DNA of 64,000 nt from a virus. The stretch lies in IMG/VR virus record IMGVR_UViG_3300037961_004224, positions 32,001-96,000 of that record; one strand, 5' to 3'. The position numbers and the translations under genes were made by a program. Below the pieces are notes generated by a model. That model made no database searches, had not been told where the DNA came from, and saw nothing but the letters and a program-made list of their open reading frames with translations. Shown here piece after piece: positions 2,418-23,017 of the stretch; within the stretch, counting starts at the first letter, position 1; each line of letters starts with the position of its first letter.

Positions 2418-3484
2418 AAACTATTTTTAATACAAAAAACATAGACCCTATGAGTCAGCCATTGTTTCTAGGCAAAGACTTAGGTGTTCAAAGATATGAT
2501 GTAGTAAAATATCCGATCTTCAAAAGTCTTGATAGCAAGCAGATGATGAACTTCTGGAGACCAGAAGAAATCGAACTAAAAAAAGATCGTGCAGATTTTC
2601 AGACATTGACCGATAATGAAAAGTTTATCTTTACCAGTAATCTAAAATATCAAACAATGCTAGACAGTGTTATCTGTAGAGGTGTTCCGACTCTTCTTGA
2701 ATTTGTCACAAACACAGAGCTTGAAGCGTGCATGATGACTTGGCAGTTCTTTGAAAAGATTCATTCGCAAAGTTATAGTTATGTTATTCAAAATGTATTC
2801 GCAGATAGCTCAGAAGTTTTTGGCGGAATCTATGAAGATAAAGAAATTATGAAACGTGCAAATAGTGCTATTGCAGACTACAATAATTTGATGGGAATGG
2901 CCTGCCCTACTACTAAATTATCTGAGCTAAAAAAACAAATTTATATGACGATTGTAAGCATTAATATTCTAGAAGCCATACGATTTTATGTAAGTTTTGT
3001 TTGTAGCTTTGCTTTTGCAGAAAATAAAAAGATGGTAGGCAATGCTGATATAATTAAATTAATAAAACGTGATGAGGCTTTACATTTGTCAAGCACTCAA
3101 AATATTCTTAAAATTCTACATACAGAAGAATCAGAAGGATTTAAGACTACAGCAAAGCAGTGTCAAGATGCAGCAATAAAAATGTTTGAACATGCCGCAG
3201 CAGAGGAAAAAGAATGGGCTTCATACTTGTTTAAAGACGGATCAATCATTGGTCTAAACGAGGCTGTGCTTCATCAGTACATTGACTGGCTATGCATGAG
3301 CAGAAGGAAAGCAATTGGGCTACCATACGATAATGCTGGTAAAAATCCTATCGCTGGTTGGACTCAAGCTTGGATGCAAAGCGAGAGTGTACAGGTAGCA
3401 CCTCAAGAACATGAAATAACTAGCTACAAAATCGGTGCTAGTAAGAACGATTTAGAAGATATGGATTTAGGAGACTTACTTTGA
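2414..3484 (+). CDS. nrdB: Ribonucleotide reductase class Ia beta subunit
   Basis: FWRPEEI, LDSV, EKIHSQSY (Fe ligands and radical Tyr), EAIRFY, DEALH; ATG at 2414 overlaps the nrdA stop (ATGA), so this start is preferred over 2390. Confidence 0.96.
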   Translation: MKTIFNTKNIDPMSQPLFLGKDLGVQRYDVVKYPIFKSLDSKQMMNFWRPEEIELKKDRADFQTLTDNEKFIFTSNLKYQTMLDSVICRGVPTLLEFVTNTELEACMMTWQFFEKIHSQSYSYVIQNVFADSSEVFGGIYEDKEIMKRANSAIADYNNLMGMACPTTKLSELKKQIYMTIVSINILEAIRFYVSFVCSFAFAENKKMVGNADIIKLIKRDEALHLSSTQNILKILHTEESEGFKTTAKQCQDAAIKMFEHAAAEEKEWASYLFKDGSIIGLNEAVLHQYIDWLCMSRRKAIGLPYDNAGKNPIAGWTQAWMQSESVQVAPQEHEITSYKIGASKNDLEDMDLGDLL

Positions 3485-3918
3485 GAATAGGAATTATATC
3501 AGGATATTTTAATCCGGTACACACAGGGCACTTGGATTATATAGAGGGTGCAAAAAGAGAATGTGATTTTTTGTACGTTATTGTAAATAATGACGATCAG
3601 GTTAATTACAAAGGTTCTACAAAATTTATGGATGAAGAGTCTAGGGTAAGAATAGTTTCTGCATTCGGGTGTGTTGATAGGGCTATTCTTTCTATAGATG
3701 ATAATCCTACTGTGGTTAAAACTATATCACAAATTTATAGAATGCATCGAGATGATCCATTTATAGAAAGTTTTTCATTCATGAATGGTGGAGATAGAAA
3801 ACAAGGAAACACGCCAGAATCTGATTTTTGCAAAAAAAATAATATAAATTTAATTTATAATGTTGGTGGTGATAAAACTGAGTCTTCTAGCACATTACTT
3901 AAAAATGTGAAAAGTTAA
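3481..3918 (+). CDS. HIGH-superfamily cytidylyltransferase (TagD/RfaE-II-like)
   Basis: GYFNPVHTGH (GxFDxxHxGH variant), C-terminal GGDKTESSS; TTG start overlaps the nrdB stop. Confidence 0.85.
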   Translation: MRIGIISGYFNPVHTGHLDYIEGAKRECDFLYVIVNNDDQVNYKGSTKFMDEESRVRIVSAFGCVDRAILSIDDNPTVVKTISQIYRMHRDDPFIESFSFMNGGDRKQGNTPESDFCKKNNINLIYNVGGDKTESSSTLLKNVKS

Positions 3919-3929
3919 TAACATTAAAG

Positions 3930-3935
3930 GTGTAT
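3930..3935 (+). promoter_or_regulatory. Candidate phage promoter motif GTGTAT
   Basis: Intergenic, 49 nt upstream of the protease ATG. Confidence 0.3.
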
Positions 3936-3978
3936 ATATAAATGGTATAGTTCTTTAATTTAAAGAAAGGGGACAAGT

Positions 3979-4905
3979 ATGAGCGACTTTAACACTCCAG
4001 ATGAGCTTATCAAAGCTTATGAGGATGGGTTTGTTGGTGGTGAATGTGACCCAGAAGATGTAATGGCATTGTTAGGAGAATTACCAATGCCTTTGTTCGG
4101 TGCTGCTGCATGGGACTTAGATTCTTCAGGTGCTGGAAAATTAAGCACACCATTTAAATCTTTACTAAAATTTGTTAAAGATTTTGGACCTTCCGAAAGA
4201 CAAACTACGGGAGACTGTGTTTCTCACTCAACAAGAAATGCCGTGGATATTACAAGGGCAGTTGAGATAGACATAAAAGGAGAAGCTGAGTCTTTTGAAG
4301 CCCGTGGAGCCACTGAGGGCATATATCAGTCCAGAGGACATATGGGACAAGGTATGACATGTTCTGGTTCTGCTAGATATGTCAATAAAACAGGTGGAAT
4401 CTTGTTAAGAAAAAATTATGGAGATGTTGACTTATCAAAATATAATTCTACTCTAGGTGCTAAGAAAAGAATACCTAATGACATTTATGTTACAGAAGCT
4501 AAAAAGCATCAAGTAAAAACTATCTCTCTTGTAACTACTATAGAAGAAGCAAGGGATGCCCTCGCTAACGGCTACGCTTTGTCGTGCTGTAGTCAAGTCG
4601 GATTTACTTCTATGAGAGATAAAAATGGAATATCCAATAGAAAAGGATCTTGGGCACACGCTATGGCATGGATTGCGTGCGATGACACTCGTAAAGTATA
4701 TGATGAAACCTTGTTCCTAATACAGAATAGCTGGGGCAAATGGAATAGTGGTCCCAAGGTTCATGGTCAACCAGACGGAAGCTTCTGGGTTAGAGAAAAA
4801 GATGCAAGGTCTATATTGAATGCAAGAGGTTCTTTTGTATTTAGTGATGTTGATGGTTTTCCTGCAAGACAATTGCCTGATTATGGCTTAGGAGGGTGGG
4901 TATAA
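3979..4905 (+). CDS. Papain-like (C1 family) cysteine peptidase
   Basis: QTTGDCVSH (oxyanion Gln + catalytic Cys), WAHAMAW (His), IQNSWG (Asn); no obvious signal peptide. Confidence 0.88.
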   Translation: MSDFNTPDELIKAYEDGFVGGECDPEDVMALLGELPMPLFGAAAWDLDSSGAGKLSTPFKSLLKFVKDFGPSERQTTGDCVSHSTRNAVDITRAVEIDIKGEAESFEARGATEGIYQSRGHMGQGMTCSGSARYVNKTGGILLRKNYGDVDLSKYNSTLGAKKRIPNDIYVTEAKKHQVKTISLVTTIEEARDALANGYALSCCSQVGFTSMRDKNGISNRKGSWAHAMAWIACDDTRKVYDETLFLIQNSWGKWNSGPKVHGQPDGSFWVREKDARSILNARGSFVFSDVDGFPARQLPDYGLGGWV

Positions 4906-5744
4906 TGAAAGATATTGATATAAGAATGTGGTTGGGGATTATACTTCTTCTTGTAGGGTTATTCTACAAAGGTGGTTTCCCAATAAATATTCCAGTTGTA
5001 AAGCCTAAATTACCTGCACCAGAACAATCAATTATTGATTTAGTTGATACCCTTCCGAATATAGGCGATCCTGTTGACGCAAATAAACTTGCGGGTACTT
5101 TTTACGCTATGTCGCAAAAAATTCCAGAAATGGAAATTAATTCCAACCTACAGGTTCAATATTTTTTGGATTATGTTGGTACAAATACCATAAAAGATGA
5201 ATTATTTCAAGATGGTGAAAAAAAATATCCAGATTTTTCTCCTGCTGCTGCAAATTTGATAGAAAAAACTATTGGTCCTCAAACAGAAACTGAGGCTCTT
5301 ACAGATGAAGAAAAACAAAATTTGTCAAAGTTGTTGTACGGATTTGCTTGGAAAATGTATGATAAAAATCAAGATAATGTATTTGAATCTTATAAATCTA
5401 AAGCTCTTTCCTCAATCGCAGAGTATAATAAAGAAGACGAAACACCTGATCCAGAACCAGACACAGACTGTCCGTGTGAAGGTAAAGGTTATATAATACA
5501 TGGAGATGGTCATCGCACAGATTGTCCATGTATAGAGTCTGGAAAAAAGTGTGAATGTAATCCAAAATGTGGTAGCGTAAAGGCTTCAGACGAGATACAG
5601 TGCCAATGTGTTTCAAAAGAAAGAAAAACCAAATGTGGTTGCGTTAAAGCATATGGAAAATGTTCCTGTCCTAAGTCATCATCAGAAAATGTGAAAAATA
5701 AATGCTCTTTTGTTAGAGGTATATTTGGATGGAGAAAAATATGA
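4905..5744 (+). CDS. Membrane-anchored protein with Cys-rich (CxC) C-terminal tail
   Basis: N-terminal hydrophobic helix WLGIILLLVGLFY; 14 Cys in the last ~85 aa; GGAGG SD 9 nt before ATG 4905 (TAATG overlap). Confidence 0.8.
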   Translation: MKDIDIRMWLGIILLLVGLFYKGGFPINIPVVKPKLPAPEQSIIDLVDTLPNIGDPVDANKLAGTFYAMSQKIPEMEINSNLQVQYFLDYVGTNTIKDELFQDGEKKYPDFSPAAANLIEKTIGPQTETEALTDEEKQNLSKLLYGFAWKMYDKNQDNVFESYKSKALSSIAEYNKEDETPDPEPDTDCPCEGKGYIIHGDGHRTDCPCIESGKKCECNPKCGSVKASDEIQCQCVSKERKTKCGCVKAYGKCSCPKSSSENVKNKCSFVRGIFGWRKI

Positions 5745-6097
5745 AACTAGAAGAATATGTTTCGCAGTTAGCGTGGATGGTTCATAATGATGTAAAGATT
5801 AAAGCGAGAAAAGATGAATATAAAATTGATCCACTAACGGTCATCACTATCATAAGTCTTATCTTGGAAGTAGTAAAATGGTTCATCAAAAATTATGGTG
5901 ACAACCCTGAAAAATTAGCTGAATCATTTGGGAATATGAATTTAGTCCAGAAATGGATAGTCTGGAGATGTATAAGAAGGGAGTCTGACGATAGACAAGA
6001 GGCTCGTTATATTTATGATTCTTTGGTAAAACTATCAGAGAAAATGTCTCTAGAAGACCGTGTTAAACTTTTTACCCTAAAGGAGAGTGAACTATGA
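5741..6097 (+). CDS. Hypothetical protein with one hydrophobic helix
   Basis: IDPLTVITIISLILEVVKWF segment; ATGA overlap with the upstream gene, GGAG SD. Confidence 0.7.
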   Translation: MKLEEYVSQLAWMVHNDVKIKARKDEYKIDPLTVITIISLILEVVKWFIKNYGDNPEKLAESFGNMNLVQKWIVWRCIRRESDDRQEARYIYDSLVKLSEKMSLEDRVKLFTLKESEL

Positions 6098-6270
6098 ACA
6101 AAGTTACTTCACTTTTGAAATCCAGACGTTTCTGGGTAGCCGCTGCTGGCCTTGCCGCTGTGTGCTCTCAAGAAGCATTTGGTGTGGAGCTTGATACCGA
6201 TCAACTTGTTGCTGTCGCAACAATTGTAGTTGCTTGGATTGTCGGTGACACTGTACGCGAAACTAAGTAA
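6094..6270 (+). CDS. Small two-TM holin-like protein (58 aa, absent from the ORF track)
   Basis: MNKVTSLLKSRRFWVAAAGLAAVCSQEAFGVELDTDQLVAVATIVVAWIVGDTVRETK; AAGGAG SD, ATGA overlap; basic N-terminus, two hydrophobic helices, charged C-terminus. Confidence 0.75.
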   Translation: MNKVTSLLKSRRFWVAAAGLAAVCSQEAFGVELDTDQLVAVATIVVAWIVGDTVRETK

Positions 6271-6292
6271 TTATTGATCAAGGAGAAACGAT

Positions 6293-6610
6293 ATGGAAAC
6301 AGTATTGAGTTTCTTTAGAGGGCTTGATGCTTTTCAATGGGTTTTGATAGTTGCGGGTCTTGTTCTTTTGTGGCCAAACATTCAAGAACGACTTGTTAAA
6401 TTGTTTACGAAAACAGAAAATGAAACAGAAGATGTTGAAGTTCCTGTTATCGACAATGAGACAATTAAAAAAGACGACCTTACATCTTTAGTTTATAAAT
6501 GGGAAGTTCTATATGAATCTTGCCGTCAGCATGATCTTAACGATGCTTGCAATAAATTAAAAGAAGTGTTTCCAATGCTAATCAAGCCTTACGAAAAATA
6601 TGATGCTTGA
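6293..6610 (+). CDS. Membrane protein, N-terminal TM plus helical C-terminus
   Basis: FQWVLIVAGLVLLWPNI TM; AAGGAG SD. Confidence 0.75.
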   Translation: METVLSFFRGLDAFQWVLIVAGLVLLWPNIQERLVKLFTKTENETEDVEVPVIDNETIKKDDLTSLVYKWEVLYESCRQHDLNDACNKLKEVFPMLIKPYEKYDA

Positions 6611-6629
6611 TCAATTTTACACATAGAAT

Positions 6630-6674
6630 GAGCTATCATGATATCTTTATGGTGTCGTGAATAGCTCTTTTTTT
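6630..6674 (+). terminator. Strong intrinsic terminator closing the protease/membrane cassette
   Basis: 16-bp stem gagctat-catgatatc / ggtgtcgtg-a-atagctc (3 G-U pairs, 1 bulge), loop tttat, then 7 T. Confidence 0.8.
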
Positions 6675-6707
6675 ATTTATAACTCAAAAAATAAAATTAA
6701 ATGCAAA

Positions 6708-7241
6708 ATGAATCACAAGCCATGTTTAATATTAAACCAAGACTACACACCACTGACTATAATAAACTGGAAAAGATCAATATGCTTAGAAATAATAGGA
6801 AATGAAATGCCCGGAGAGGGTGTCATTGTTTTAGAACATTACGAAGATGATTTCGTAAAGTCTAGCGGTGGTATTAAATATTTTATACCTGCGGTGGCAG
6901 TAACATCAAGGTATATCAAAAGACAAAGGAACATTAAATTAAAAAAAACAAATTTATTAATAAGAGACAATTCAACATGTCAGTATTGCAATTTAAAACT
7001 TTCTGCAAAAAATACAACGATAGACCATGTAAAGCCTAAAAGTCACTTTCAAACAAAAGAAGATGCTCACACTTGGGATAATGTAGTCATAGCTTGCTCC
7101 AGATGCAATACAAAGAAGGCAAATAAAACATTAGAACAATCAGGCATGAAATTATTAAAACAGCCTAGAAAGCCAAACCCGAATAACTTTTTTTCATTCT
7201 TAAACTTTCCTATTCCAGAAGAATGGAGCATTTATGTTTGA
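6708..7241 (+). CDS. HNH endonuclease (McrA/HNH_5-like)
   Basis: CQYC..TIDHVKP..WDNVVIACSRCNTKK; N-terminal LILNQDYTPL; the GTG at 6657 lies inside the terminator, so ATG 6708 is preferred. Confidence 0.9.
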   Translation: MNHKPCLILNQDYTPLTIINWKRSICLEIIGNEMPGEGVIVLEHYEDDFVKSSGGIKYFIPAVAVTSRYIKRQRNIKLKKTNLLIRDNSTCQYCNLKLSAKNTTIDHVKPKSHFQTKEDAHTWDNVVIACSRCNTKKANKTLEQSGMKLLKQPRKPNPNNFFSFLNFPIPEEWSIYV

Positions 7242-20934: not shown

Positions 20935-21381
20935 ATGGACGAATTGATAGAAAAAAATATGGGGCTTGTTGTCTCAATAGTAAATTCTTTTGGACCCAAG
21001 AATCATACTGAGCGTCAAGATTTAATGGACGCAGGCAGAATAGGGCTTTGGAAAGCTTTACAAAAATATAACAGAGAAAATGGTCACTTGATTTCTACCT
21101 ATGCTTGGAGACCAATAAGGTGGTCAATAATTAGGGAGATAAAGAGCAGGAAAAAATTCGTATCTATAGAAAATATAGCATCTCCAGTTGTTGAATCAAA
21201 ACAAAACTTATGGGAATGTTATACTGATGATATGTCACCTGAAGAACAAATCTTAATTGATTTAAGAAAAGAAGGATATAAATTTCATGAAATATGTGAC
21301 ATTCTAGATGAAACTCCTTCTAAAGTAAAAAATAAATTTTATAAACTTATAAAAAGATTAAGAGAAGCAAATGCAACGTAA
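20935..21381 (+). CDS. Minimal sigma-70-family factor (regions 2 and 4)
   Basis: LIEKNMGLVVSIV..DLMDAGRIGLWKALQKYN..STYA..IRWSI; C-terminal HTH GYKFHEICDIL. Confidence 0.85.
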   Translation: MDELIEKNMGLVVSIVNSFGPKNHTERQDLMDAGRIGLWKALQKYNRENGHLISTYAWRPIRWSIIREIKSRKKFVSIENIASPVVESKQNLWECYTDDMSPEEQILIDLRKEGYKFHEICDILDETPSKVKNKFYKLIKRLREANAT

Positions 21382-23017
21382 GAAAAGAATACTCTTTGTA
21401 ACTGAATCTCATAAACTAGCTTCTGGATTTGGGACTTATGCAAAAGAGATACTGAACAGAATATACAAAACTGGTAAGTATGAAATAGCAGAATTCGGCT
21501 GCTATATGAGTCCTATCGAGAATGAATCAACGGATTGGTTGATATATGGAAATGCTCCAATGCCTCATGAAGAGGAATATCGCAAAGAGCATACCTCCAA
21601 TCCAAATGTGCAATGGGGGATTGCTAGATTTGAACATGCTGTCTTAGACTTTAAGCCAGACATAGTTGTTACCTATAGAGATCCTTGGATGGATGCGTAC
21701 ATAGCTGACAGCGTACTGCTTCCCTTTTTTCACTGGGTTTGGATGCCAACAGTAGATAGCGAACCTCAAAAAAATGAATGGCTATATTGGTTTAATAAAT
21801 GTGATGGGTTAATGGCATATTCTGAATATGGTATCAGAACACTAGAAAACCAAACACATGGAAGATTAAAGGTAACAGATTGTGCATCGCCAGCTATTGA
21901 TCCAAATACTTTTAATATAATCCCAAATAAAGCAAAGCACAAACAAAGTATGGGAATTGATCCAGATAGCTTTATAGTTGGAACAGTGATGCGTAATCAG
22001 AAAAGAAAAATGTTCCCAGACCTTATAAAAAGCTTCAAAATGTTTCTTGAAAATGCACCAAAAGAAATAGCGGAAAAATCTTTTCTTTATCTACACACTA
22101 GTTACCCAGAAAAAATGGGATGGGATATAACATCGTTAGTACACGAGTATGGAATAGGATCAAAAATTCTTGTAACTTATACTTGTAAGGCATGTAAAAA
22201 GTATTTTTGTTCTAATTATAGAGATGCCATAACTCAGTGTAACCACTGTGGAAAAACTGCTGCAACAATGCCGGGAGTCACTAACGGTCTAGACCATTCC
22301 GACCTACCTAATATATATAACTTGATGGATTTGTACGTGCAATATGCAATCTGTGAAGGCTTTGGTATGCCTCAAGTAGAAGCCGCAGCGTGTGGGACAC
22401 CAATAGCGTCTATTGATTATAGTGCTATGGAAGATGTTGTTAAGCACTGTAAAGGATATCCTATCAAGCCAAATCTTCAAAGAGAAATGGAAACAAACGC
22501 ACAAAGATCGGGCCATAATAACGAAGAATTAGCAAAGATTATGCTAAAATGTGCTTCTCAAAATGACGCACAAAGAAAAAAACAAAGGCTTGAAACAAGG
22601 AAAGGCTGTATTTCAAGGTATACTTGGGATAAAGCTGCAAAAAGCTGGGAAAAATATTTTGATAGTGTTGAAAGAACAAAGCCACTAGAAGGACAATGGG
22701 ATGCTCCAAGGCTCATGCGTCCTGTACCAAATGAAATGCCTAAACAACATATAAACAACCAGCAGTTTTCAGAGTGGATTTATAATGATGTAGTGCAAGA
22801 TGATTCAGAAAAATTTTCATACAAAATGCTCTTCATGATAAGAAATTTAAATTTTGGAGCTAGAATTGGTGGCGACATGTCTCCCTACACTAAAGAGAAT
22901 GCTTTTAACGATTCTAAACATTTGGCAAATAGAAGACTTTACTTTGATACAATTAGGTGTGAAGGATTGCAACCGCAAGATTTTATAATTCAAGCACATA
23001 ACAGGATTAAGAAATGA
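21371..23017 (+). CDS. GT4-family glycosyltransferase with Cys-rich insertion
   Basis: GTVMRNQKRK, EGFGMPQVEAAACGTP (ExxE motif intact). Confidence 0.88.
   Translation: MQRKKRILFVTESHKLASGFGTYAKEILNRIYKTGKYEIAEFGCYMSPIENESTDWLIYGNAPMPHEEEYRKEHTSNPNVQWGIARFEHAVLDFKPDIVVTYRDPWMDAYIADSVLLPFFHWVWMPTVDSEPQKNEWLYWFNKCDGLMAYSEYGIRTLENQTHGRLKVTDCASPAIDPNTFNIIPNKAKHKQSMGIDPDSFIVGTVMRNQKRKMFPDLIKSFKMFLENAPKEIAEKSFLYLHTSYPEKMGWDITSLVHEYGIGSKILVTYTCKACKKYFCSNYRDAITQCNHCGKTAATMPGVTNGLDHSDLPNIYNLMDLYVQYAICEGFGMPQVEAAACGTPIASIDYSAMEDVVKHCKGYPIKPNLQREMETNAQRSGHNNEELAKIMLKCASQNDAQRKKQRLETRKGCISRYTWDKAAKSWEKYFDSVERTKPLEGQWDAPRLMRPVPNEMPKQHINNQQFSEWIYNDVVQDDSEKFSYKMLFMIRNLNFGARIGGDMSPYTKENAFNDSKHLANRRLYFDTIRCEGLQPQDFIIQAHNRIKK

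Follow-up and report, generated by a model that had tools for sequence, protein, structure and literature searches.

The window analysed here, 64,000 nucleotides of a viral genome (positions 32,001 to 96,000 of record IMGVR_UViG_3300037961_004224), carries a gene for a papain-like peptidase (g1) followed by four genes for proteins with membrane helices (g2 to g5). The question raised by this locus is what such a set of proteins does for the phage. An earlier note on this DNA proposed a self-contained lysis cassette in which the protease takes the place of a classical endolysin. To our knowledge, every tailed-phage lysis system studied in depth works through a peptidoglycan hydrolase, and no C1-like peptidase is known to cleave peptidoglycan. 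No published description of the cassette was found in the full-text literature. On the evidence presented below, we favour, at a probability of approximately 0.55, the reading that the operon is a holin-gated, protease-based module that breaches the envelope to lyse the host.

The five genes, all on the plus strand between positions 3979 and 6610, form one operon with coupled starts and stops (Table 1). In the list of open reading frames, g2 starts with GTG at 4896; the true start is most likely the ATG at 4905, which forms a TAATG overlap with the g1 stop codon. The g3 ATG at 5741 overlaps the g2 stop, and the g4 start overlaps the g3 stop, both as ATGA. The g4-g5 spacer is 22 nt long and includes AAGGAG. 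Downstream of g5, a 16-bp hairpin (6630-6667) is followed by a T7 tract (6668-6674), with a folding energy of -22.3 kcal/mol (z = -5.1) that was equalled by 0 of 200 shuffles. The earlier description of five genes, four of them coupled by overlaps, between a promoter-like motif and a strong terminator was borne out.

Table 1. Features of the cassette, in window coordinates.
Feature	Position	Strand	Basis or remark
Promoter-like phage motif AAGGTGTATATATA	3928..3941	+	51 nt 5' of the g1 start
g1, papain-fold cysteine peptidase, 308 aa	3979..4905	+	ORF, conserved catalytic set, AF2 fold
g2, membrane-anchored partner, 279 aa	4905..5744	+	Hydropathy, Cys count, family alignment, fusions
g3, ~118-122 aa, one central TM-like helix	5741..6097 (alternative start 5729)	+	Hydropathy
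g4, 58 aa, two-helix, holin-like	6094..6270	+	Hydropathy, weak PHROG holin matches
g5, 105 aa, N-terminal TM helix	6293..6610	+	Hydropathy
Intrinsic terminator, hairpin and T7	6630..6674	+	RNA fold

The exact 10-mer AAGGTGTATA, found at 3928, occurs three times in the 126-kb record, each time intergenic and on the plus strand: before g1, before nrdA and before one further operon. The core, GTGTAT[AT], occurs 42 times; 10 copies are intergenic where approximately 2 were expected (P = 1.7e-5), and all 10 point to a same-strand start no more than 300 nt away. In the closest relatives (L006, L008 and L010), the variant GGTGTATT lies at -59/-66 before g1. The g1 promoter motif is common to the ribonucleotide reductase (RNR) operon and to structural operons, and the cassette is located in the replication/nucleotide arm of the genome, not among the late genes. 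The early promoters are of the form TTGACA-N17-TATAAT, which argues against a Bacteroidota host. ARAGORN detected no tRNA or tmRNA in the window or its flanks.

The g1 product was characterized using alignment, profile searches and a structural model. Among 55 homologues sharing 33-54% identity, three residues (Cys80, His227 and Trp252) are invariant, and conservation of at least 90% is seen at Gln75, Asn250 and Ser251. The catalytic positions align with those of caricain around Cys25 and His159; the family profile matched caricain at E = 8e-5 and also matched papain. The AF2 model of g1 (pLDDT 94.6) was matched by xylellain (PDB 3OIS) with a Foldseek E of 4e-10 and, using VIA-align, a Z of 21.9 over 232 residues at 2.9 Å. 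Procathepsins reached Z 19-20, and more than 300 C1 chains reached Z of at least 8. Xylellain and the C1A zymogens share 12-19% sequence identity with g1. Among the structural neighbours are papain-like domains of phage proteins that bear the names peptidoglycan-binding or muramidase. Hydropathy analysis revealed no hydrophobic segment and no signal peptide in g1. The alignment, the model and the hydropathy profile accordingly agree with the earlier account of a papain-like enzyme with intact Gln/Cys/His/Asn motifs and no signal peptide.

The label "C1A-type" used in that account is too specific. Indeed, g1 gave no Pfam match at E values up to 0.1 and no PHROG match, and PF00112 was touched by only 2 of the 55 homologues (best E = 3.6e-4). 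The protein has the catalytic Gln/Cys/His/Asn-Ser-Trp set and the two-lobed papain fold of family C1; the secretory signal and full I29 prodomain of C1A enzymes are absent, and only a short propeptide-like segment is present. Because g1 does not reach the PF00112 profile threshold, we would assign it to a C1-like family of its own within clan CA. The catalytic Cys is the sole invariant Cys among the homologues, so there are no conserved disulfides. Zymogens aligned with the model from residue 5-6, and mature enzymes from approximately residue 50. In the model, the N-terminal ~50 residues look like a propeptide, and g1 looks like a latent, zymogen-like enzyme.

Some members of the family carry export signals: TAT signals are present on homologues P0139, P0265 and P0269, and a lipobox on P0262. 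The majority, g1 included, have none. These signals, the TM-anchored fusions among homologues and the Sec or lipoprotein signals on the partner protein (see below) indicate that the enzyme family probably acts outside the cytoplasm. Approximately one-third of the cluster representatives contain inteins, inserted either at the catalytic Cys or immediately after the catalytic His. Such a pattern of intein invasion is usual for core replication enzymes and unusual for a lysin. Between this genome (G000) and G002, g1 is 70% identical, as compared with 42% for DnaB, 33% for RecA and 25-50% for most structural proteins. Only NrdA/B exceed it, placing g1 among the most conserved genes of the lineage.

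Each of g2, g3, g4 and g5 contains at least one TM-like segment by hydropathy, in keeping with the four membrane-helix proteins described earlier. The g2 protein is anchored by a TM helix at its N-terminus and also contains a helical domain, an acidic Pro linker, the Cys motif C-x-C-x-G-K-G-Y-I-x-HGDGH-x-T-x-CPC and a CxC-rich tail; its C-terminus (RGIFGWRKI) is basic. Natural fusions of g1 and g2 occur in P0166, P0167, P0170, P0180, P0188 and P0223, in the order TM anchor, g2 N-domain, peptidase and g2 Cys motif; some also have a thioredoxin-like CxxC tail. These fusions indicate that g2 is a true, dedicated partner of the protease. The form with an N-terminal TM was found in approximately 14-16 of 150 cluster representatives. 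A fold search with a 614-aa fusion model returned matches that were all taken up by the peptidase domain, and the g2 N-domain had no match in the ESM Atlas. Lys and Arg residues flanking the anchor helices numbered 15 versus 15, a count that is not decisive; we therefore base the topology on the forms with a signal peptide, a lipobox or a TAT signal.

The g2 equivalents of sister lineages have a Sec signal or lipobox and a WCGPC thioredoxin domain, with a match to the PHROG thioredoxin family at E = 1.2e-5. Pfam scanning and the family alignment revealed no thioredoxin domain in the g2 of the window, which also had no Pfam or PHROG match. In this genome, a WCGPC protein with a lipoprotein signal is encoded separately (G000 21281-21772), 14.7 kb upstream of the cassette. 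The unit proposed in the earlier note is an operon as described and is not fully self-contained with respect to the exported thioredoxin that sister cassettes include.

The 58-aa product of g4 has the form of a holin: it is small, has TM helices, begins with a basic N-terminus (KSRRFW), ends with a charged C-terminus (DTVRETK) and is encoded beside a putative lytic enzyme. Its helix 1 is rich in Ala and Gly and only borderline hydrophobic. Weak matches to PHROG holins were obtained (9987, E = 1.3e-3; 297, E = 6e-3), together with no Pfam match. The nearest ESM Atlas clusters are named holin with a score of 0.97, the names being automatic. Relatives of g4 are 60-80% identical, and several start with M-x-x-K-M, resembling a dual start. 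The g4 type of gene lies 3' of g1 in 38 of 66 judgeable viral loci; in the other 28, an unrelated 70-aa two-helix gene lies 3-19 nt 5' of g1. No locus of the 66 has both genes, and none has neither. Holins are typically subject to such non-orthologous replacement. The survey, which found one small two-helix gene with the peptidase at all 66 loci, and the two predicted helices of g4 fit the earlier view of this ORF as holin-like, and we consider g4 a candidate holin; the assignment, which draws on matches at E of ~1e-3 and automatic names, is a weak one.

The hydropathy of g3 reaches 1.96 at residues 35-53. The g5 protein has a charged C-terminal domain with two Cys residues, is type-II-like and had no Pfam or PHROG match. 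No lipobox was detected in g2-g5 of the window, and no recognizable spanin pair was found. The antiholin or spanin-substitute roles that the earlier note gave to the extra TM proteins (here g2, g3 and g5) are conjectural. Overall, profile and structure searching yielded the papain fold of g1 and the weak holin matches of g4, and left g1, g2 and g5 without a Pfam or PHROG family.

Pfam scans of nearly the whole proteome revealed no canonical muralytic enzyme. Six-frame searches of this record and of four relatives, three of them 100% complete and the fourth 88% complete, were negative for PF00959, PF01510, PF01464, PF13539, PF05838, PF01520, PF00877, PF08291, PF01551 and PF05257, the control for PF05838 having itself given no signal. 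The failure to detect these ten families here and in the relatives agrees with the idea that no classical endolysin is encoded elsewhere in the genome. A muralytic enzyme of unrecognized fold is possible among the many unassigned ORFs.

The g1 block remains clustered across 80 viral loci in which the position of the RNR genes changes from upstream to downstream of it. Homologues of g2, g3, g4 and g5 were present in 71, 34, 46 and 64 of the 80 loci, respectively, with identities of 20-54% for g3 and 22-45% for g5. The peptidase family comprises 1,412 clusters at 50% identity, many from ocean samples. A Planctomycetota prophage encodes, in this order, a signal protein, a g1-like peptidase with a TM anchor, an exported thioredoxin and another signal protein; the genes for the terminase large subunit, portal and capsid follow directly downstream. 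Lambda-type lysis cassettes occupy the position just before terminase. On a Bacteroidota chromosome, a stand-alone, signal-less copy occurs among polyamine and SDR genes, without membrane partners.

A tblastn search with g1 of 50,697 phage records gave no match, and no family member comes from a cultured phage. With megablast, the sole match of a 20-kb segment was a 73-nt RNR stretch in T4-like phages. The DnaB helicase had only distant matches (~28%, Bacillus and Staphylococcus phages), indicating that there is no cultured relative. The phage is abundant, uncultured and marine. Naming a host from MAG labels (Promethearchaeota, SAR202, Flavobacteriales and Planctomycetes) was rejected, as the low-GC contigs look like binned viral contigs. 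The partnership of g2, the zymogen-like form of g1, its conservation and inteins, and the motif shared with RNR had all been missed by the earlier note.

From these data, we infer a course of events that extends from latency, holin function and docking to the redox role, the substrate and lysis itself. Lacking a signal peptide, g1 would build up in the cytoplasm as a latent, zymogen-like enzyme with its N-terminal ~50 residues in the place of a propeptide. At the end of infection, g4 would permeabilize the inner membrane, allowing g1 to reach the periplasm. There, g2, anchored in the inner membrane, would face the periplasm and dock, position or activate g1 by means of its helical domain and its GDGH Cys motif. 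The exported WCGPC thioredoxin, fused to g2 in sisters and unlinked here, would probably reduce the catalytic thiol or disulfide-bonded substrates. The protease would then cut peptide bonds that hold the envelope, either in the stem or cross-link peptides of peptidoglycan or in structural envelope proteins, and an S-layer is a further candidate substrate; g3 and g5 may be accessory membrane proteins with roles in timing or at the outer membrane. More broadly, we tentatively suggest that this entire lineage of large marine phages, which is abundant worldwide, and unrelated Planctomycetota prophages may have dispensed with peptidoglycan hydrolases and open the envelope by proteolysis, using a latent papain-type protease, holin release, a periplasmic docking partner and an exported thioredoxin to cut disulfide-stabilized envelope proteins or wall peptides.

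Known systems provide partial precedents. As in lambda S-R-Rz/Rz1, a signal-less hydrolase, a small two-helix membrane protein and membrane-anchored or lipoprotein genes are combined in one operon. As in canonical lysis cassettes generally, the holin-like gene is replaceable and the prophage cassette lies just before terminase. Some cassette enzymes have an N-terminal membrane anchor or export signal, resembling SAR endolysins such as P1 Lyz, in which thiol-disulfide chemistry controls the catalytic Cys. Unlike in canonical cassettes, the enzyme is a papain-fold, C1-like peptidase and not a glycosidase, amidase or M15/M23/CHAP/NlpC peptidase; a proposed dedicated docking partner and an exported thioredoxin are present; and g1 is far more conserved than usual lysins and lies in the replication arm, with no recognizable spanin pair. 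The sister lipoprotein equivalent of g2 differs from Rz1 in carrying a thioredoxin domain.

With respect to the enzyme, g1 shares its fold and Gln/Cys/His/Asn-Ser-Trp set with xylellain and the C1A zymogens (procathepsin B/K/L and propapain), and its N-terminal segment superposes on the part of the zymogen propeptide that covers the cleft. In contrast to these proteins, g1 has no PF00112 match, signal peptide, conserved disulfides or full I29 prodomain, and the genes are phage-borne with membrane partners. CHAP, NlpC/P60 and the PeiW/PeiP/PeiR enzymes of methanogen viruses, which viruses use to cut wall peptide links, are cysteine peptidases of the same clan CA superfold; the pseudomurein endoisopeptidase PeiR matched the fusion model at Z 10.4. 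However, these enzymes are of other families, CHAP and NlpC/P60 profiles match nowhere in these genomes, and g1 is much closer to C1 proteases. Cwp84 of Clostridioides difficile, also of C1-type fold (Z 17.9), is a C1A protease that processes the S-layer precursor and thus acts on a proteinaceous surface layer. Unlike g1, Cwp84 is an enzyme that the host secretes; it carries lectin-like and wall-binding domains, serves in maturation and not in destruction, and has no phage or holin context.

The proposal of lysis made in the earlier note gains from the fold, the operon, the holin-like g4 and the failure to find a canonical wall enzyme; against it count a conservation of g1 that exceeds that of a typical lysin, the inteins, the 10-mer shared with RNR, the replication-arm position and the stand-alone cellular copy. 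Several of these points would suit a periplasmic module that remodels the envelope, in which the peptidase, its partner and the thioredoxin process or destroy host envelope proteins and an unrecognized enzyme lyses the cell. Such a module might remove receptors for superinfection exclusion, free progeny from debris or alter outer-membrane proteins. The export signals and TM-anchored fusions denote extracytoplasmic action that is not specific to lysis, the promoter motif is common to middle-type operons such as RNR, and high conservation with inteins points to a tightly constrained enzyme. We nevertheless consider remodelling unlikely. Since most members, including g1, have no export signal, they could enter the periplasm only through a lesion in the membrane, an event in keeping with the end of infection. 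Moreover, every relative has one small two-helix partner, the three complete genomes encode no alternative muralytic enzyme that could be found, and the prophage cassette adjoins terminase.

A purely cytoplasmic protease, active in host takeover, amino-acid scavenging or the maturation of phage proteins (e.g., giant structural proteins) beside unrelated membrane genes, is difficult to reconcile with fusions that place the peptidase between a TM anchor and a g2 Cys motif that is exported in sisters by Sec or as a lipoprotein, with TAT signals on some homologues, and with retention of the block and its membrane genes in every relative examined. It accords with the missing signal peptide, with very high conservation and inteins like those of core enzymes, with a motif and genome arm common to RNR and replication genes, and with the signal-less cellular copy in a metabolic neighbourhood; on balance, we regard it as quite improbable. 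A role as prohead protease was rejected: g1 does not lie near the head genes and is always accompanied by membrane-protein genes, and the record contains a separate gene for a ClpP-like protease. That g2-g5 are spurious ORFs or unrelated small genes brought together by chance is scarcely credible. Although neither g3 nor g5 could be assigned to a family, and both show low identity among relatives, the genes overlap at their starts and stops and lie between a common promoter motif and a terminator; across the 80 loci, g2, g4 and g5 have recurrent homologues; g1-g2 fusions exist; and the two holin-like genes are perfectly mutually exclusive.

That inteins sit precisely at the catalytic Cys is a helpful sign of functional importance, and the either/or pattern of two unrelated small membrane proteins offers a clean genetic test. 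If the cassette is a lysis system, it would represent a new class of enzyme, a C1-like protease assisted by a docking partner and by a thioredoxin in the periplasm, and a class of lysin with redox-assisted activation that is new among phages. A latent, redox-controlled protease of this type might also find biotechnological use. Given the size of the family, such a system would explain how many of the uncultured phages now annotated without a lysin lyse their hosts, and the weak point of these hosts would be envelope components other than the glycan strands.

Alone, the peptidase g1, the first of the five plus-strand cassette genes, matched no Pfam or PHROG model. The profile of its family matched caricain and other papains at the Cys block and at the His/Asn-Ser-Trp block (E = 8e-5). 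Among 55 homologues sharing 33-54% identity, Cys80, His227 and Trp252 were invariant, and Gln75, Asn250 and Ser251 were nearly so. The AF2 model of g1 was confident (pLDDT 94.6), aligned with xylellain over 232 residues (Foldseek E = 4e-10; Z = 21.9, 2.9 Å), and also matched hundreds of C1 enzymes structurally. Zymogens aligned from residue 5-6 of the model and mature enzymes only from approximately residue 50, which places the g1 N-terminus where the cleft-covering end of the propeptide lies; this propeptide-like N-terminus suggests that the enzyme may be latent. As the catalytic Cys is the sole invariant cysteine in the family, g1 lacks the disulfides typical of secreted C1A enzymes, which fits cytoplasmic folding. 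The family is very large: a word-indexed search yielded 1,637 proteins and an exhaustive search yielded 1,412 clusters at 50% identity. Overall, g1 is a papain-fold, C1-like peptidase in a family of its own. The earlier note had called it a C1 papain-like peptidase, and this stands for the fold and the catalytic set but not for the C1A type, given the disulfides and the Pfam result.

The operon layout, comprising five genes with overlaps, an upstream motif and a terminator, was as previously described. The overlaps are TAATG at g1/g2 and ATGA at both g2/g3 and g3/g4; a 22-nt gap containing a Shine-Dalgarno sequence lies between g4 and g5. A 16-bp hairpin with a trailing T7 run forms the terminator (folding z = -5.1). 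The upstream motif differs from the sigma-70 consensus. Specifically, the record contains three copies of AAGGTGTATA, all of them intergenic and on the plus strand: before g1, before nrdA of the ribonucleotide reductase (RNR) operon, and before one further operon. The core, GTGTAT[AT], was enriched five-fold between genes (10 of 42 copies, P = 1.7e-5), and all intergenic copies face a gene start less than 300 nt away, minus-strand structural operons included. Early-type promoters (TTGACA-N17-TATAAT, often preceded by CCCC) were restricted to genome 116-126 kb, at the record's far end; this stretch is probably the early region. Based on its motif and the distribution thereof, the cassette belongs to a phage-specific promoter class. 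As this class is common to RNR and structural genes, it does not precisely fix the timing of the cassette.

Features of the cassette and related loci. Positions are window coordinates unless a record is named; homologue counts refer to 80 related viral loci (g1 identity 67-82%).
Feature	Position	Strand	Remark
g1, peptidase	3979-4905	+	
g2	4905-5744	+	homologue in 71/80 loci
g3	5741-6097	+	homologue in 34/80 loci
g4, 58 aa, holin-like	6094-6270	+	homologue in 46/80 loci
g5	6293-6610	+	homologue in 64/80 loci
GTGTAT[AT], example copies	3928, -100, -17772	+	50-290 nt upstream of operon starts
GTGTAT[AT], example copies	54747, 77232	-	50-290 nt upstream of operon starts
Intein site 1 of g1 homologues, corresponding position	4216-4218		QTTGD/C
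Intein site 2 of g1 homologues, corresponding position	~4666-4668		HAM/C
Basic-aromatic tail of g2	5715-5741		RGIFGWRKI
Cytidylyltransferase-like gene	3481-3918		between nrdB and cassette
HNH endonuclease gene	6657-7241		likely start ATG 6708
Thioredoxin-site protein, 163 aa	G000:C1:21281-21772 (L083:5282-5773)		14.7 kb upstream of cassette, outside window
Stand-alone g1 homologue	L111:10000-10935 (G478:C1)		3.9-Mb Bacteroidota chromosome

The IMG/VR virus record spans 126,253 bp with a GC content of ~35% and an estimated completeness of 81%; the window covers its bases 32001-96000. Its plus-strand arm, extending to ~30.7 kb, carries nucleotide-metabolism and replication genes, of which NrdA/B, RecA-like, DnaB, split DnaE and a sigma-70-like factor (region-2 protein) were recognised. 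Its minus-strand arm carries structural genes, two giant proteins among them. Within the first 32 kb (alignment A2) lie genes for a ClpP-like protease, a CarF-type lipid desaturase, IMPDH/GMP reductase, DUF1501, a DegT aminotransferase and several glycosyltransferases; for a phage, this amounts to a large load of auxiliary metabolism. No close cultured phage was found using tblastn of g1 against 50,697 phage records, megablast of 20 kb, or DnaB comparison, and ARAGORN detected neither tRNA nor tmRNA across the record (window 1-64000 and flanks L082-L085). The cytidylyltransferase-like gene (PF01467, E = 2e-12; PHROG heptose-phosphate adenylyltransferase-like) occupies its position in only 3 of 80 relatives. 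The HNH endonuclease gene right after the cassette terminator was shared by just 11 of the 80 related loci and is therefore probably a mobile insertion. Relative to the cassette block, the RNR genes change sides between lineages, being upstream in some and downstream in the rest.

As judged from sequence, g2 is a partner of the protease. Six longer family members (P0166, P0167, P0170, P0180, P0188 and P0223) are natural g1-g2 fusions, in which an N-terminal TM helix is followed by a domain resembling the g2 helical domain (BLASTP E = 2e-5), the peptidase, and the g2 Cys motif, C-x2-C-x-G-x-G-[YW]-I-x2-GDGH-R-x2-CP (E = 7e-7). Two of the six have a C-terminal thioredoxin-like CxxC domain. The AF2 model of P0170 (mean pLDDT 80.8) comprises a confident helical bundle, corresponding to the g2-like N-domain, then a disordered linker, the peptidase, a low-confidence hydrophobic helix, and a small β-hairpin at the Cys motif. 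The product of the gene that follows g1 in sister lineages combines a Sec signal or lipobox with this same GDGH motif, CxC repeats and a WCGPC thioredoxin domain. In the window's g2, a TM anchor replaces the signal peptide, and a CxC-rich tail with a basic end replaces the thioredoxin. This end follows a basic-aromatic pattern, RG[IL][FL]x[RW][RK], that is conserved in the thioredoxin-less g2-type proteins (the window and related loci L017, L031 and L072) and missing from the thioredoxin-bearing forms; it may be a membrane-active peptide. The 163-aa protein encoded upstream of the cassette carries both a lipoprotein-type signal (…VIMGC) and a thioredoxin site, WCGPC, and is likely the unlinked counterpart of the exported thioredoxin fused to the g2 equivalents of sister lineages.

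Because the Cys motif is exported in signal-bearing forms and is contiguous with the helical domain in the window's g2, the simplest consistent topology would be periplasmic both for the soluble portion of g2 and for the peptidase carried by the fusions. The TM-anchored fused form accounted for about 14-16 of 150 cluster representatives; three g1 homologues bear twin-arginine signals and one a lipobox. Most family members, g1 included, have no signal and would enter the periplasm only via a membrane lesion. Endolysins are known to occur both as soluble enzymes and as variants with a signal or an anchor, and the g1 family is like them in this respect.

Consistent with the pairing proposed in the earlier note, the peptidase was found beside a holin-like two-helix protein in 66 of 66 related loci with enough flank to be judged. 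This protein was of the g4 type in 38 loci; in the other 28, which lack g4, there is instead an unrelated two-helix gene (70 aa) whose end lies 3-19 nt ahead of g1. The sister-lineage gene at L088:7786-7995 is of this second type. No locus had both types and none had neither. A conserved enzyme accompanied strictly by one or the other of two unrelated small membrane proteins is what holin replacement looks like. The holin matches of g4 itself were weak (PHROG E ~1e-3; ESM Atlas neighbours named holin). Several g4 orthologues start M-x-x-K-M, resembling a dual start, while the window's g4 has a single start.

A check for a canonical endolysin elsewhere in the genome detected none among ten peptidoglycan-hydrolase families. 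Six-frame searches for GH24 lysozyme, Amidase_2, SLT, M15_4, GH108, Amidase_3, NlpC/P60, M15_3, M23 and CHAP were negative in this record, in three relatives that are 100% complete (167-174 kb) and in another that is 88% complete; the GH108 control gave no signal. Similarly, no muralytic domain was among the families listed by hmmscan of nearly all ORFs of at least 70 aa (25 of 29 families in one batch). A muralytic enzyme of novel fold may be encoded elsewhere in these genomes.

Among further genomes sampled, the g1 family was present in 4 of 300 from Planctomycetota and 2 of 300 from Bacteroidota. The link to Planctomycetes applies only to distant members of the family. On one Planctomycetota chromosome, the cassette lies inside a prophage and consists of a signal protein, a TM-anchored g1-like peptidase, an exported thioredoxin and a signal protein, in that order. 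Right after this set come the genes for the terminase large subunit, portal and capsid; this position is the classical one for a lysis cassette. One Bacteroidota chromosome provides a caveat to the lysis reading: its intact, signal-less g1 homologue (family-profile E = 3e-105) stands alone in a cellular neighbourhood of polyamine and dehydrogenase genes (SDR, GNAT, agmatine deiminase-type and carbon-nitrogen hydrolase), with no membrane partners or phage genes visible around it.

That copy would also suit a non-lytic role, which the cassette may have in the envelope or the cytoplasm. With 70% identity to its copy in the complete relative G002, g1 is exceeded only by NrdA (85%) and NrdB (82%), far above most shared proteins (25-50%). 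Moreover, the exact upstream 10-mer is common to the cassette and the RNR operon, and approximately one third of the g1-family cluster representatives contain inteins. At one insertion site, the catalytic Cys80 is the +1 extein residue; the other is three residues past the catalytic His. Hint/LAGLIDADG inteins occur in many homologues, including P0121, P0122, P0126, P0137, P0145, P0149 and P0171, and some proteins of ~1,040 aa appear to have one at each site. We know of no description of inteins within a protease active site. The conservation, the inteins and the shared 10-mer make non-lytic roles possible and fit a typical lysin poorly. The gene arrangement seen in the earlier note is confirmed, and its reading as a lysis module is supported in part, by the papain-fold enzyme and by the holin-like partner at every locus judged. 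A full-text literature search found no published description of the cassette. On balance, the best explanation, to which we assign a probability of roughly 55%, is a holin-gated lysis module in which the latent papain-type peptidase g1 would be the core enzyme, g2 would be its dedicated periplasmic partner, and thioredoxin would act as a redox helper.
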